This document shows positions 52,495 through 57,055 of a DNA stretch of 64,000 nucleotides, piece by piece. The notes under the pieces were generated by a model. It made no database searches. It was not told the origin of the DNA and worked only from the letters and a program-made list of their open reading frames with translations. The stretch is from Planctomycetota bacterium (GTDB taxonomy: Bacteria > Planctomycetota > Planctomycetia > Planctomycetales > Planctomycetaceae): contig QQVO01000013.1 in NCBI GenBank assembly GCA_003388505.1, positions 134,896-198,895 on the forward strand, given 5' to 3'. How positions within the stretch are numbered: the first letter of the stretch is position 1; every line of letters starts with the position of its first letter. A program made the translations under genes and the position numbers.

Positions 52495-52777
52495 GAGACG
52501 CGTCCTTTCAGCGTTGAAAACTCGATCGGTGCGAAGGGGCAGCGTAAGGTGAATCCGTGGTCCGGTTCAACGGTCGTGAAAGATGTTTCAGCAACTTCCC
52601 TCCGCCGGAGCGTCTCGAAATTCAATCCACGAATCAGCGTAGAGCAGGTGAACCTCCAGGAGGCCCACGGAGTCCTTGCTATCGTCCATTGGAGTTGTCC
52701 GTCCAGCGGCGTGCAGGTCACCCGGCAGGGTTCGGCACTGCATGTTCCGCGAATGGGTTCTGACCGGACGACGCCAA

Positions 52778-52853
52778 TTTCGGTTAGCTCAGTGGATAGA
52801 GCACCAGATTCGAGATCTGGAAGTCACGGGTTCAAATCCCGTACCGACCACCA
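52778..52853 (+). tRNA. tRNA-like gene, 76 nt with encoded CCA: Arg-type class-I body but anticodon CGA (Ser, UCG) and two mismatches at the acceptor top (possible pseudo/aberrant or remodelled tRNA)
   Basis: Manual fold: acceptor TTTCGGT/ACCGACC (pairs 1-72 and 2-71 are T-C mismatches); D arm GCTC-AGTGGATA-GAGC with A20; anticodon arm CCAGA-TTCGAGA-TCTGG; 5-nt variable loop; T arm ACGGG-TTCAAAT-CCCGT; A73 followed by CCA. Confidence 0.55.
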
Positions 52854-53239
52854 ACACCGTCGGCTGGTAACCGACACCGACTCCCATGTCGGAGGACGCT
52901 GACTTGCAGCGTCACACAGAGCCCAAAGGAGGCAGACATCCGTTCGATCCGCCAGGATTCGCGATCGAGTGGCGAGCCGGGAGGCGTCAGCCCCCGGATC
53001 ACTCGCGATTTCGGCGCGATCCCGGCAGCACCTGGCGACGCCTTGCAGTGCGTGGATACCGCGCTTGTCGTTCATCGATCAAAGGCAGCCGACGCCGCGA
53101 GCCTGACCAACGCCGCTTCCCCCGGGAAGCCGCCGCGGAAACCTCAACGCCGACGCTGCCCGGCCCCGCTGAAGACGCTCACTCAAGCGCACTCCGCGTT
53201 CGACCGGTGTGATCAACGCATGCTCTGCTTCCGGAGGGT

Positions 53240-53773
53240 TTACTCTTCCTCAACCTCTCGGCGAACCACACCAACAAACACCGGCAGCACCCCCTCCTCG
53301 CGCAGCGACTTGGTCGGAATCGACTGGTAACGCAGCGGGACGGCGACTCTTACGTGGTCATCGGACGAGACCAGAATCCAGAACAGAGACGCGTGTGCGC
53401 ATGACTCGGGGTTCTTGTGAGAAGATCCGGTCGGAATCTCGCACTCGACTGTGGCGAATCCGTCTGCTTGAGTTGTCTCTCCGAACCAACCCTCCTTCAT
53501 CGCCCTCCAGCCCGAGTCGAAGTGGTCCTGATATTCTACGAATCCGAGACGGTCTCCCGGGATTGGTCCACGAATCAACGCGACGTGCGCACCTTCTACT
53601 GGCTCAATCGTCTCCGCATCGAAGACGTACACTCGAACCGGTACCTCGATCGATCCACTCGCCGCCCACTTGGGTTCCGGCAGCAGGAGCGCGACGAGAA
53701 TCGCCGCAATCACCACAACGACGAGCCATTCGATCCAGGTCTTCGGAATCAGGTGATTGCGGATGAGACGCAT
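53240..53773 (-). CDS. hypothetical membrane-anchored protein
   Basis: MRLIRNHLIPKTWIEWLVVVVIAAILVALLL (TM helix), then a roughly 140-aa soluble domain with no recognisable motif. Confidence 0.45.
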   Translation of the reverse strand: MRLIRNHLIPKTWIEWLVVVVIAAILVALLLPEPKWAASGSIEVPVRVYVFDAETIEPVEGAHVALIRGPIPGDRLGFVEYQDHFDSGWRAMKEGWFGETTQADGFATVECEIPTGSSHKNPESCAHASLFWILVSSDDHVRVAVPLRYQSIPTKSLREEGVLPVFVGVVRREVEEE

Positions 53774-53915
53774 CGAATCGCGACCCAAAGGAGCTAAGTG
53801 AGAACCGCTACTCGGTCTTCTATTCTACGCGAGTAGATCACCGTTGGGCGACTCCCGTCTTCAATTGTTCGAACAGACCTGTTGTGACGATCCGCGTGCG
53901 GTCATGCGAACTGCA

Positions 53916-54491
53916 TCACGCATCAATCTCATCCGGCTCGGCCAGCACGTCTTCCAGCAGGTCCGTTAGGCCGAGTTGATCGACGCACGCTCGCGCAACA
54001 GCCTCGTCATCTTCATTCGCGCCGCGCATCAGCAGTTTCACGTCGCGACGGCTCTTGTGGCTCCCCTTGCTGATCCAGACCAGTTTGGAAGCGATCAGAT
54101 CAGGTCGGGACACGATCGGAAATTGGAGGTCCGCTGTGAGATCAATCACGATCGAGCGGTCAAGCTCCCCGGGCACGAGTTCGCGTGGATAGAAGTCGAT
54201 CTTGAGCGCTTCCTGCGGATCGACCACCTGAAACATCCGCTTGCGACTCACCGCCTCTCGAATCGTCGCTGCGTCCGCCAGGCAACCGAGTTGGTGAATC
54301 GCTTCAAGGAACCGGTCCAGATGGGCCTGCAGCTGAACCGGATCGACAACCAGATCGGCGTCCTGGGTCAGCCGCGGCTCGGCGTAGTGAACGGCGACCA
54401 GACCTCCCGTGAGGTGATAACGAACGCCGCAGTCGTCCAGAATCCGGGCGAACCGTTCGAGCAACGGGAAAAACACGTCAGGAGTCAACAT
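53916..54491 (-). CDS. nucleotidyltransferase-fold protein (AbiEii/DUF1814-like minimal NTase, tentative)
   Basis: HLTGGLVAVHYAEPRLTQDADLVVD matches hG[GS]...DxD. Its start overlaps the stop of the upstream small ORF by 14 nt, which suggests translational coupling. Confidence 0.55.
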   Translation of the reverse strand: MLTPDVFFPLLERFARILDDCGVRYHLTGGLVAVHYAEPRLTQDADLVVDPVQLQAHLDRFLEAIHQLGCLADAATIREAVSRKRMFQVVDPQEALKIDFYPRELVPGELDRSIVIDLTADLQFPIVSRPDLIASKLVWISKGSHKSRRDVKLLMRGANEDDEAVARACVDQLGLTDLLEDVLAEPDEIDA

Positions 54492-54717
54492 CCTGCAGCT
54501 TCCTTTGAATCAGCTCTCGCGTCCTGCGATCGGAACCGTACTGCCGCAGGGCGACTTCCCACTTGAGCCGCTCGGCGGAAACGTCCCCCAACTCGTCCCG
54601 CAACTGCCGCGCGTACATGTCGCGCACCCAATGCAGCATCGCATGCATCCGCGCAAACTTCTCAGCGGACGTCATGGAATCGACGGCCTGGCGATAGGCT
54701 TCTTCAACAAGCGACAT
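54478..54717 (-). CDS. small helical protein (79 aa), first gene of a two-gene module with the NTase
   Basis: GAGGAG RBS with 7-nt spacing to the ATG at 54717. The protein is MSLVEEAYRQAVDSMTSAEKFARMHAMLHWVRDMYARQLRDELGD... and overlaps the downstream NTase gene. Confidence 0.45.
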   Translation of the reverse strand: MSLVEEAYRQAVDSMTSAEKFARMHAMLHWVRDMYARQLRDELGDVSAERLKWEVALRQYGSDRRTRELIQRKLQDVDS

Positions 54718-54951
54718 GCGGGGCTCCTCTCGCTGGATCGTACCAGCCAACAATCGCAGCCAAAATGTAAGGGCGAGAGGCGAACTCAGCGAGACGGAAT
54801 GGTGTCTTTCTTGGGGGTGTCGCAACGTCTTGGTTGTCCTCCGCGGGCCCTCGCAGAGGCAGTGTCACAATCTGCCCGGCTGAAGGCTATCCTTGTACCC
54901 CGCTCGCGTTTGACCAGCGCGATCAGCAATAGACTTGATTCCGGCGGGTCT

Positions 54952-55575
54952 TCACGCGACCGCGACTCGATCCAAATCTGAGAAAGGATAGTGTCCATTC
55001 TGCTTGAGCAATTGCAGCAGTTGCTCTCCCCCGTTTTCCCGCGCGTACTCCATTTCCGACCGAAAGATCTCGACCAGCGCCAACAGACCAAAGGTGTCGC
55101 CGTCGTGCAACTTGTGTCTTGCATAATCGGCGAAAACCAGACACCGACCCCCCAGCTTCTCCATGTTGGCTGGAAACTCACATGTTTCACGAGGGTTCAA
55201 CGTTGCCTGCGCACTGTAAGGCGCCATGCAATTCAAAATGGCGTTGATCGATCCGTGTGCGCGACCGAACGCGGTTGATGCATCATGCACCGAATCGAGG
55301 TCGAGAGCGTGGCGGGTAAACATTACGAGTTCGTACCGGTCGTACACGTCGTTCCGCGAGCACTCGTCGAGGTCTTCACTCAATTCCTTCGTGGCGATCG
55401 CTGTCCCTGAAAGTCCGTTCGGAAAGTAATACAGATCAAGGCCGCCGCCGATCGCATAAGGGATGATCGCGTGCATAACAACGTCATGCTCGGGTCCGAG
55501 CGACTTTTCCATGAGCGATGACTTGAGATCGTACCACTGATCGGACAGTCGTTCATCATCATTTGTGGATGCCAT
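54952..55575 (-). CDS. SUFU-like domain protein (an immunity-protein-like family), tentative
   Basis: HDVVMHAIIPYAIGGGLDLYYFPNGLSGTAIATKELSE resembles the bacterial SUFU domain. The start is at MASTNDDERL (55575) with a GAGGA RBS. Confidence 0.45.
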   Translation of the reverse strand: MASTNDDERLSDQWYDLKSSLMEKSLGPEHDVVMHAIIPYAIGGGLDLYYFPNGLSGTAIATKELSEDLDECSRNDVYDRYELVMFTRHALDLDSVHDASTAFGRAHGSINAILNCMAPYSAQATLNPRETCEFPANMEKLGGRCLVFADYARHKLHDGDTFGLLALVEIFRSEMEYARENGGEQLLQLLKQNGHYPFSDLDRVAVA

Positions 55576-55747: not shown

Positions 55748-56854
55748 ATGTTCATCCTCAAGCGTTACAAGATCCGCAGCTACGAAATGGGTCTGTCCTT
55801 CCGCGACGGCGAGTTCCGCGGTCTGCTCGGAACGGGTACGCACTGGTTCCTCGACCCGTTGGGCAAGGTCCGCGTGGACGTTGTCAGCCAGCGTGATCCG
55901 TGGCTGGTCCACGAAAAGCTCGACCTGATTGTGAAGTCAGGTGCACTGGCTGAGCGCGCAGTGGTCCTGGACCTCAAGGACCACGAGCGGGCTTTGGTCT
56001 GGATCGAGAACCGGTTCAGCCACATCCTGCCGGCCGGTCTGTACGCCTATTGGACCGGCCAAAAGGACGTCCGCGTCGAGGTGATCGATGCGCGCAACGT
56101 GCGGTTCGAGCACGAGGACCTGAAGGTCATCGCCCGCTCGACGATGGCGCAGCGCGTGCTCGACGTCTGCACGATTGGCCGTGATCACGTCGGCGTACTG
56201 TTCATCGACGGCCGATACGTCGACACGCTGGCGCCGGGTCTATACGCCTTCTGGAAGGGTCAGTCCGAAGCCCGTGTGGTCGAAGTCGACCAGCGCGAGA
56301 CGATGGTCGATATCGGCGGTCAGGACATCATGACGTCGGACAAGGTCTCGCTGCGGCTCAACGCCGTTGTGACCTACCAGGTTGCCGACGCCCGTCGGGC
56401 CGTCACGCAGACCGACGACGTTCGTCAGGCGCTCTACCGCGAAACGCAGCTCGTGCTGCGGGCCGTGGTCGGGGCCCGCGATCTCGACACGTTCCTCACG
56501 GAGAAGGACGCCGTGGCCAAGGAAGTCGAAGAGGACGTTCGGCGTCGGGCCGGCGGATTGGGTCTGGAAATTGCCTCGGTTGGCATCCGCGACGTGATCC
56601 TGCCGGGCGACATGAAGGACTTGATGAACAAGGTCACGGAGGCCAAGAAGGCAGCCGAGGCCAACCTGATCTCGCGGCGTGAGGAAACGGCCGCCATCCG
56701 CAGCCAGGCCAACACGGCCAAGCTGCTGGCGGACAACCCGGTCCTCATGCGACTGCGAGAACTGGAAGTCCTCGAGAAGATCGCCGCCAACGGCAAGCTC
56801 AACATCGTCACCGGCGAGAACGGGCTGGCCGACAAGATCGTCAACCTGCTGTGA
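55748..56854 (+). CDS. SPFH/Band-7 domain protein (stomatin/HflC-like)
   Basis: GGGAGAGG RBS. The SPFH core is present (VSLRLNAVVTYQVADARRAVTQTDDVRQALYRETQLVLRAVVGARDLDTFLTEKDAVAKEVEE) and a C-terminal coiled coil follows. Confidence 0.8.
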   Translation: MFILKRYKIRSYEMGLSFRDGEFRGLLGTGTHWFLDPLGKVRVDVVSQRDPWLVHEKLDLIVKSGALAERAVVLDLKDHERALVWIENRFSHILPAGLYAYWTGQKDVRVEVIDARNVRFEHEDLKVIARSTMAQRVLDVCTIGRDHVGVLFIDGRYVDTLAPGLYAFWKGQSEARVVEVDQRETMVDIGGQDIMTSDKVSLRLNAVVTYQVADARRAVTQTDDVRQALYRETQLVLRAVVGARDLDTFLTEKDAVAKEVEEDVRRRAGGLGLEIASVGIRDVILPGDMKDLMNKVTEAKKAAEANLISRREETAAIRSQANTAKLLADNPVLMRLRELEVLEKIAANGKLNIVTGENGLADKIVNLL

Positions 56855-56925
56855 CGATCGCGGTGACGCAAGTTCGCGCCCCCGATTCGACCGTTCGAAT
56901 CTGGGGCGTTTTGCTATTTCGGGTG

Positions 56926-57021
56926 GCCGGGGCTGGACTGAGCGAAGCGAAGGAAGCCCCGGTCGACCGGCAACTCACGGACACCGGGGCTTCACTCCCC
57001 TTGGTCACTCCAGCCCCGGCC
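56926..57021. other. nested long palindrome between convergent genes (GGCCGGGGCTGGA...TCCAGCCCCGGCC enclosing GAAGCCCCGGT...ACCGGGGCTTC)
   Basis: Outer arms are 13 bp and inner arms about 11 bp. There is no U-run. It could be a bidirectional terminator or a REP-like structure. Confidence 0.4.
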
Positions 57022-57055
57022 ACCCCGTGGAGTCTCGGCGACGTCGCCCGCGGAC

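Follow-up and report, generated by a model that had tools for sequence, protein, structure and literature searches.

MenAT1 of Mycobacterium tuberculosis is a toxin-antitoxin (TA) system formed by the antitoxin MenA1 (Rv0078B) and the nucleotidyltransferase (NTase) toxin MenT1 (Rv0078A) (Cai 2020; Xu 2023, PMC10435456; Arrowsmith 2024, PMC11375011). MenA1 is a helical protein of 68 amino acids (aa) without a DNA-binding domain, encoded upstream of menT1, and it bridges two MenT1 protomers. MenT toxins act on the acceptor ends of tRNAs. Mutagenesis showed that the toxicity of MenT1 needs D41, K137 and D152, with D43 as a metal ligand and T39 as a regulatory residue (PMC10435456); auto-phosphorylation of MenT1 at T39 is induced by MenA1, as described in PMC11375011. 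Work on MenAT1 has been done almost only in mycobacteria, and a 2023 survey found just 21 menA1 homologues. Here, we analysed a 64,000-nucleotide (nt) stretch of a Planctomycetota metagenome-assembled genome (MAG), referred to as the window, and focused on its segment 53240-55575, where a 191-aa NTase and a 79-aa protein are encoded by overlapping genes. The two genes probably constitute a MenAT1-type two-gene TA module, which lies with unrelated cargo in a small hotspot between an RNA gene and a Band_7 gene.

The original prediction for this segment, made from the sequence alone, had read its four minus-strand open reading frames (ORFs) as a tRNA-adjacent island carrying defence or addiction cargo of an undescribed type. 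All four ORFs are present as it described them, and a TA-type module with a partner that is neither AbiEi nor HEPN is supported by the results below. The module is not of an undescribed type, since both proteins and their architecture match MenA1-MenT1 of M. tuberculosis: the pair looks like a planctomycete version of the known MenAT1, and it is the RNA anchor itself that is apparently undescribed.

Results

A MenT1-like nucleotidyltransferase

The 191-aa protein, which is 100% identical to the NCBI entry 'MAG: hypothetical protein DWQ34_08375', matched the Pfam family AbiEii (PF08843) with 36.1 bits, above the cut-off of 22.5, and the same family was found in most of its listed homologues. 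A single-sequence search of all PDB sequences returned 8AN4/8AN5/8RR5 as the only significant match (E 7e-5); these entries are MenT1 alone, complexed with MenA1, and phosphorylated at T39. With a profile of 30 family members, the match to 8AN4 reached E 8.4e-13 and spanned residues 7-176, nearly the full length of the protein. The AlphaFold2 (AF2) model (pLDDT 94.5, pTM 0.89) has the bi-lobed MenT fold, and a Foldseek comparison with the PDB placed MenT1 in all top five positions (E 2e-8 to 4e-7, prob 1.00, TM 0.55-0.71), followed by ANT(2'')/Lnu nucleotidyltransferases (ANT(2'')-Ia and LnuA at E 1e-4 to 1e-3), by MenT3 with a weaker match, and by CCA-adding enzymes. Judged by sequence and modelled fold, the 191-aa protein is thus a MenT1-like DUF1814 nucleotidyltransferase.

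The residues that matter in MenT1 are retained. T39, D41, D43, K137 and D152 of MenT1 align to T42, D44, D46, K136 and D150 of the window protein, and these five positions were invariant in 30/30 family members. Likewise invariant across the family are the hGG motif (T28-G29-G30) and the DxD motif (D44/D46), on which the protein had originally been called AbiEii-like, a call that the PF08843 score bears out. D44, D46, K136 and D150 are the predicted catalytic residues, and T42 is a putative phospho-acceptor.

The NTase family is large, comprising at least 956 clusters at 90% identity; nearly all members are 190-191 aa long, with identities of 47-74%. An acidic C-terminal motif, (A/S)E(P/S)DEI, is kept across the clade (residues ~182-191, encoded at 53916-53945 in the window); it lies outside the region aligned to MenT1, where the confidence of the model is low, and could be a tail specific to the clade, with a part in regulation or interaction.

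The small upstream protein

The AF2 model of the 79-aa protein (pLDDT 95.8) consists of four helices, at residues 3-13, 17-43, 48-60 and 64-78. The protein itself had no significant match in the Pfam scan, and Foldseek of its model against the PDB returned noise only (E>3); the comparison of AF2 models that had been suggested for this locus was therefore informative for the NTase, with MenT1 in its top five places, and uninformative for the small protein.

Its relatives provided more. The family counts 282 representatives at 50% identity, and more distant members were gathered in an exhaustive search with the hidden Markov model of the window's family (E<=5e-8). PF18993, 'Rv0078B-related antitoxin', was the only family that recurred among these relatives: it was matched by 4/25 close and 12/32 distant (E<=0.1) members, most of them below the gathering threshold, and the best score, 27.3 bits against a gathering cut-off of 27.1, belonged to P0437, the sole member above it. 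The alignments always joined residues ~14-60 to profile positions 2-48. DUF6362, a weak match of the small protein (E 0.034), was present in one member only and was dropped. These results suggest a homology of the small protein to the MenA1/PF18993 family that is transitive and weak, yet coherent.

Conservation of the gene pair

The stop codon of the small gene (54478-54480) lies 14 nt within the NTase gene, which starts at 54491. Both genes are preceded by purine-rich, Shine-Dalgarno-like boxes, GAGAGGAG 6 nt 5' of the ATG of the small gene and AAGGAAG 7 nt 5' of the NTase ATG. The overlap and the ribosome-binding boxes had been noticed beforehand and are confirmed here.

We scanned one genome per species (GTDB; 185,579 genomes), and at least 305 of 600 candidate stretches encoded a relative of the NTase; the counts that follow refer to the best 80 of these at least 305 stretches, each from a different species. 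A homologue of the small protein was encoded directly upstream of the NTase, on the same strand, in 79 of the 80 loci, and the exception starts at a contig edge. The overlap was exactly 14 nt in 71/79 pairs; because its exact length is kept in so many pairs of different species, it is not a matter of chance, and it is consistent with translational coupling of the two genes. All-against-all clustering of the flanking ORFs in the 80 loci revealed no third conserved gene. Nearly all of these loci came from Planctomycetota (Planctomycetaceae, Pirellulales, Phycisphaerales and MAGs labelled Kuenenia), with a few from Acidobacteriota and Eisenbacteria. The neighbourhood of the pair varies with the genome, from recA/lpxB through hisA-like genes to a transposase plus AAA ATPase; the last context was seen in one locus (L010; L numbers denote retrieved loci), where the pair adjoins genes for a DDE transposase and an AAA_15/AAA_21 ATPase. 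The NTase and the small protein are a self-contained module, found mainly in chromosomes of Planctomycetota.

Split toxin or antitoxin reading frames were observed in four MAGs, which could reflect gene decay or assembly error. The antitoxin frame is split in L011/L005 (3703-4011), and the toxin frame in L015 (1680-2432) and L080 (2520-3110). L059 carries tandem antitoxin-like genes (862-1167 and 1168-1428; 47% and 71% identical to that of the window) upstream of a frame-split NTase gene; here, an antitoxin duplication with toxin decay, or again an assembly error, could be the cause.

An insertion hotspot between conserved anchors

Segment 53240-55575 is exactly the insert between a structured RNA element and a gene for a Band_7 protein (Table 1), and the spacer between these two anchors measures 2509 nt in the window. 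The same spacer is empty, at 69-160 nt, in ten distinct related loci. Elsewhere it is filled to 948-3706 nt, and the cargo differs: the module alone occupies ~950-1060 nt in L103/105, L012 and L015; L104 (1111 nt) holds a homologue of the window's membrane protein and a DUF6678 protein; L099 (1274 nt) holds a different membrane protein of 374 aa; and L059, L020 and L013 (1555-3706 nt) combine the module with other genes. Across loci, the hotspot cargo comprises the MenAT1-like pair, pilin-like-anchored membrane proteins, a 353/374-aa membrane protein, DUF6678, ADP-ribosylglycohydrolase and SUFU proteins, and the inserted genes are all on the strand opposite to the anchors. Of the 19 distinct related loci that bear the element, 17 have the Band_7 gene at 72-88% identity; it is fragmentary in L059 and absent from L112, and it is on the same strand as the element.

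Thus, the survey of relatives, which had been proposed together with the original prediction, revealed presence/absence polymorphism between conserved flanks, with both empty sites and differing cargo. 53240-55575 is a variable insertion hotspot between conserved anchors. Its mosaic occupancy states indicate separate gains of cargo, and because occupancy varies between the anchors, we regard the segment as an accretion hotspot with mosaic content and not as a single acquired system. The pair is dispensable, since the hotspot is empty in ten close relatives. The island that had been proposed therefore holds as far as variability is concerned; its integration at a tRNA gene is not supported, as there was no integrase, no att repeat and no clear compositional deviation of the pair, and the 'tRNA' is part of a larger RNA. 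No recombinase is encoded among the four genes of the segment, and its other ORFs overlap these genes in other frames and have no detectable homologues or family matches. The search for att-like direct repeats was negative, in that the tRNA-like 3' end was not repeated within 51.5-57.5 kb beyond short chance matches.

The structured RNA element

The left anchor is an element of ~560 nt that stops 1 nt short of the first of the four genes. Searches with nhmmer found it at full length in six genome loci, the window and five others with an NTase gene, and 19 further metagenome loci were retrieved by the element pattern, 17 of them with full-length or nearly full-length copies and two with partial ones. 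The consensus fold has 108-109 pairs, in which 91.4% of cells were paired versus 34-41% in slid controls; compensatory double changes were present in 52 pairs versus 21-35 in slid controls, and 0/500 shuffles reached the observed values. Rfam 15, searched at a permissive E-value with the window copy and four divergent ones, reported the tRNA model only, and tmRNA, RNase P RNA, GOLLD and ROOL were thereby rejected as identities of the element. Viral contigs yielded no copy, and literature searches no account of an RNA of this kind in Planctomycetes. The element looks like a candidate for an undescribed large structured bacterial non-coding RNA.

The tRNA-like gene of the original prediction exists as an element of this larger RNA: it is a domain of the ~560-nt molecule whose top acceptor pairs remain unpaired. 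ARAGORN made a single tRNA call in the 64 kb, 'tRNA-Ser(cga)' at 52778-52853 on the plus strand, with a class-I-shaped body of 76 nt despite the Ser CGA anticodon. The acceptor stem has only 4-5 pairs and its top pairs never form; in one acceptor pair, compensation occurred twice independently (G:C to A:U and G:C to U:A). The D arm, anticodon stem and T arm are near-invariant, and the anticodon loop is hypervariable, with eleven different triplets (cga, cac, cat, tca, aag, atg, gat, tga, gag, cag and tgg) as well as 6-nt loops in L012 and L096. The embedded domain is unlikely to be a decoding tRNA.

In most of the metagenome loci, the element follows tRNA-Cys and closes, on the 3' side, a long array with as many as 35 tRNA genes; the window genome has the element and no tRNA array within 64 kb. 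Four loci exemplify the arrangement (L102 7555-12495, L110 2645-6947, L111 2023-11296 and L104 69-3946), with the element ~10 nt after tRNA-Cys(gca) and arrays of 21-35 tRNA genes on one strand.

Co-located genes and locus layout

The 207-aa protein of the segment matched Pfam SUFU with 30 bits against a cut-off of 25, in line with its earlier description as SUFU-like. Homologues number at least 960 across Planctomycetota, including Gemmataceae, Pirellulales, Stieleria and others; those listed share 62-78% identity with it (63-70% in most cases), and most have lengths of 204-207 aa. In three long contigs, the homologue is a stand-alone gene with unrelated neighbours, none of them conserved, and among the fetched loci, the SUFU protein had matches only in L091-L093, which were retrieved with its own homologues, and in 0 of the element- or NTase-bearing loci. 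A Pfam scan of the window found no toxin-domain neighbour of the SUFU gene, in agreement with the earlier statement that no cognate toxin is near. Matches of the SUFU protein to ankyrin-repeat PDB entries were rejected as an artefact of a short repeated motif at residues 172-198. In one Stieleria sp. locus (L093 1-5615), the SUFU homologue lies ~1 kb downstream of genes related to DotU/IcmF of the type VI secretion system, with two small unassigned ORFs between; no other locus hinted at a role of this conserved, otherwise stand-alone protein in secretion or immunity.

The membrane protein (177 aa in the public annotation) has one N-terminal hydrophobic helix and no significant match in Pfam, NCBIfam or PADLOC. 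Its homologues were found in two related loci, L006/L013, where the gene adjoins Band_7 on the opposite side of the module, and L104, where it occupies the hotspot without the module. The SUFU and membrane proteins are co-located unrelated cargo and not components of the module, so that the four genes do not form the single functional set that had been supposed: only the pair travels together, and homologues of the other two occur apart.

Of the two defence-system tools that had been suggested, DefenseFinder and PADLOC, we ran PADLOC; its models of known and candidate defence systems, those of AbiE among them, gave no match for any of the four proteins, which thus went unrecognised, and an NCBIfam scan of the same four yielded nothing significant. 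GC and codon usage, likewise suggested as a check, set apart the SUFU gene (GC 0.54) and the membrane gene (0.585), both below the long ORFs of the window (0.63 +/- 0.02), and did not single out the pair; its GC of 0.60 and GC3 of 0.70-0.75 (long ORFs, GC3 0.73 +/- 0.09) lie within or close to the long-ORF range and show no clear deviation. A promoter scan found no sigma-70-like sites, a scan that is uninformative for Planctomycetota. Gene order is the same on GCA_003389255.1. An inverted repeat at 56921-57025 (43-nt arms, 84% complementary, 19-nt loop), between the Band_7 gene and a convergent pabB-like gene, is probably a bidirectional terminator or an element of the repetitive extragenic palindromic (REP) kind.

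Table 1 Features of the segment and its anchors in the window, and copies of the RNA element in other loci (own coordinates).
Feature	Position	Strand	Description
Structured RNA candidate, left anchor	52679-53238	plus	~560 nt, conserved, with embedded tRNA-like domain
tRNA-like domain	52778-52853	plus	76 nt, convergent with the four genes
Membrane protein gene	53240-53788	minus	182 aa from TTG; public annotation 177 aa from ATG at 53773
NTase gene	53916-54491	minus	191 aa, MenT1-like DUF1814/AbiEii, putative toxin
Gene overlap	54478-54491	minus	14 nt, antitoxin stop within toxin start
Small-protein gene	54478-54717	minus	79 aa from ATG, antitoxin-like, putative distant MenA1 relative
SUFU-domain gene	54952-55575	minus	207 aa, Pfam SUFU
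Band_7/SPFH gene, right anchor	55748-56854	plus	368 aa, Pfam Band_7 E 4e-30
RNA element copies	L012 4628-5174; L013 5331-5879; L015 2320-2872; L020 4592-5136; L059 2285-2827; L094-L112		

Discussion

We consider a MenAT1-type TA module, accumulated in the hotspot beside unrelated membrane and SUFU-domain genes, to be the likely explanation of the gene pair. By analogy with the mycobacterial homologue, the 191-aa toxin would add nucleotides to the 3' CCA ends of tRNAs and thereby block translation. The 79-aa protein would be translated first from the shared mRNA, with the toxin coupled to it via the 14-nt overlap, and would neutralise the toxin by binding over its active-site face, by inducing auto-phosphorylation of Thr42 (the equivalent of MenT1 T39), or both. 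Toxicity, tRNA substrate, mode of neutralisation and control through Thr42 phosphorylation are thus features that we infer from MenT1.

Several results weigh against this explanation. The window's 79-aa protein had no match to PF18993 at E<=1 and so falls outside that family, and MenA1 was not retrieved from the PDB by the small-protein sequence, the family profile, a sub-clade profile or the AF2 model; the homology of the antitoxin is for these reasons transitive and weak. Relatives of the NTase were not found on viral contigs, and those on plasmids were only cyanobacterial and 27-29% identical. As there are no viral and only distant plasmid relatives, the evidence of mobility is indirect, coming from the differing contexts and from hotspot occupancy. 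In addition, the uniform length of the NTase family is unusual, and its presence mostly in one phylum makes it less patchy than many TA families.

An alternative is a non-toxic enzyme, whether a housekeeping or resistance NTase such as a small-molecule or antibiotic NTase of the ANT(2'')/Lnu kind or one acting in tRNA repair, with the 79-aa protein serving it as a subunit for regulation or specificity. The Foldseek matches to ANT(2'')-Ia and LnuA, the uniform length, the 47-74% identity, the mostly single-phylum distribution and the native-like composition of the pair all fit such an enzyme. MenT1 nevertheless clearly outranked all other matches, in sequence as in fold, and neither D150, the MenT-specific residue of motif IV, nor the regulatory Thr varies in the family; an obligatory small partner, encoded upstream, translationally coupled and with affinity to an antitoxin family of Pfam, is a TA signature; and a family encoded in at least 305 candidate stretches across 185,579 species genomes is far from universal. 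With the hotspot empty in ten close relatives and with possible disruptions of toxin or antitoxin in four MAGs, we regard a non-toxic role as quite improbable. Somewhat less improbable, but still unlikely, is a primary role in abortive infection or phage defence after the manner of AbiE, in which the same toxin chemistry would kill or arrest infected cells and not serve chromosomal addiction or stress; this would be compatible with a MenAT1-type module. In its favour, the Pfam family of the toxin, AbiEii/DUF1814, was founded on an Abi system, the pair in L010 stands beside a DDE transposase and an AAA_15/AAA_21 ATPase, and the hotspot is variable and holds other small cargo. On the other hand, neither protein of the pair had a PADLOC match at E<=1, the partner is not AbiEi (COG5340), most contexts of the pair are ordinary chromosomal genes (recA, lpxB, hisA-like), and no members were found on viral contigs.

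There is very little to recommend the four genes as one island acquired at a tRNA, that is, as a new multi-component defence or addiction system with a SUFU-like immunity component. They are co-oriented and together exactly fill the variable gap between the anchors, and the GC of the SUFU and membrane genes is below that of the long ORFs of the window. Only the pair is conserved jointly, however, with no third conserved neighbour in the 80 loci; SUFU homologues elsewhere stand alone in unrelated contexts, L104 has a homologue of the membrane protein at its hotspot and lacks the pair, and neither an integrase nor att-like repeats were found in the segment. Mosaic occupancy, which indicates separate gains, largely refutes the one-island explanation. 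A functional link between the MenT1-like toxin and the ~560-nt RNA, with the tRNA-like domain as substrate, decoy or sensor and the spacer as a preferred landing site, likewise has only a slim chance of being correct: MenT toxins act on tRNA acceptor ends, and the module adjoins the element in 7 distinct loci (the window, L012, L013, L015, L020, L059 and L103/105), but 74/80 modules have no RNA element within 4 kb and most RNA copies have no module.

As a MenAT1-type module, the pair broadens the MenAT1 family by a large, uniform clade of MenT1-like proteins, each with a longer antitoxin variant and mostly in Planctomycetota. Because the Thr is invariant, this clade offers natural variation for testing the model of antitoxin-induced auto-phosphorylation. 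The locus also defines cleanly a small site of insertion that is empty in some relatives and filled in various ways in others, and yields as a by-product an apparently undescribed large structured RNA that ends planctomycete tRNA arrays.

Comparison with known systems

Among described arrangements, SUFU immunity proteins of polymorphic toxin systems share a domain with the 207-aa protein, and an adjacent cognate toxin gene was not found in the window. The hotspot resembles tRNA-adjacent islands in that variable accessory genes stand beside an RNA gene, between conserved anchors and with empty sites in relatives; it differs in having no integrase, recombinase or flanking direct repeats, in its mosaic cargo of 1-3.7 kb, and in the point of insertion, which is in the spacer past the terminal hairpin of the RNA, ~385 nt beyond the tRNA-like domain.

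With MNT-HEPN (type VII), the pair has in common a minimal NTase and a small helical protein in an overlapping operon. In MNT-HEPN, however, the HEPN RNase is the toxic partner and the NTase its antitoxin, whereas the window NTase is of the DUF1814 and not the MNT family; neither a HEPN domain nor an Rx4-6H motif was found in the partner, and Pfam found no HEPN match in the neighbours. AbiE (type IV TA), MenAT3 and MenAT4 share the toxin superfamily (PF08843/DUF1814) and the antitoxin-then-toxin order. Their partner is a COG5340/AbiEi winged-helix protein of ~200-300 aa, unlike the 79-aa protein, which had no AbiEi-type match in Pfam, NCBIfam or PADLOC, and the window toxin is ~100 aa shorter than AbiEii/MenT3.

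MenAT1 is the closest system. The toxins are only ~21-23% identical, and the window antitoxin, with 79 aa and four predicted helices, has no detectable similarity to MenA1, which has 68 aa and one long and one short helix. The planctomycete clade further differs in its phylum, in keeping the 14-nt overlap and an AEPDEI tail, and in being without an adjacent TetR repressor like Rv0078. Shared with MenAT1 are a minimal DUF1814 NTase of ~190 aa with a bi-lobed fold, the Asp/Asp/Lys/Asp set and a Thr two residues before the first Asp, and a short, all-helical antitoxin that is encoded directly upstream in the same operon and is free of a DNA-binding domain, the partner being neither AbiEi nor HEPN. 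Some distant members of the small-protein family reach the Rv0078B family of Pfam, mostly with scores below the threshold, which is suggestive of a further link.

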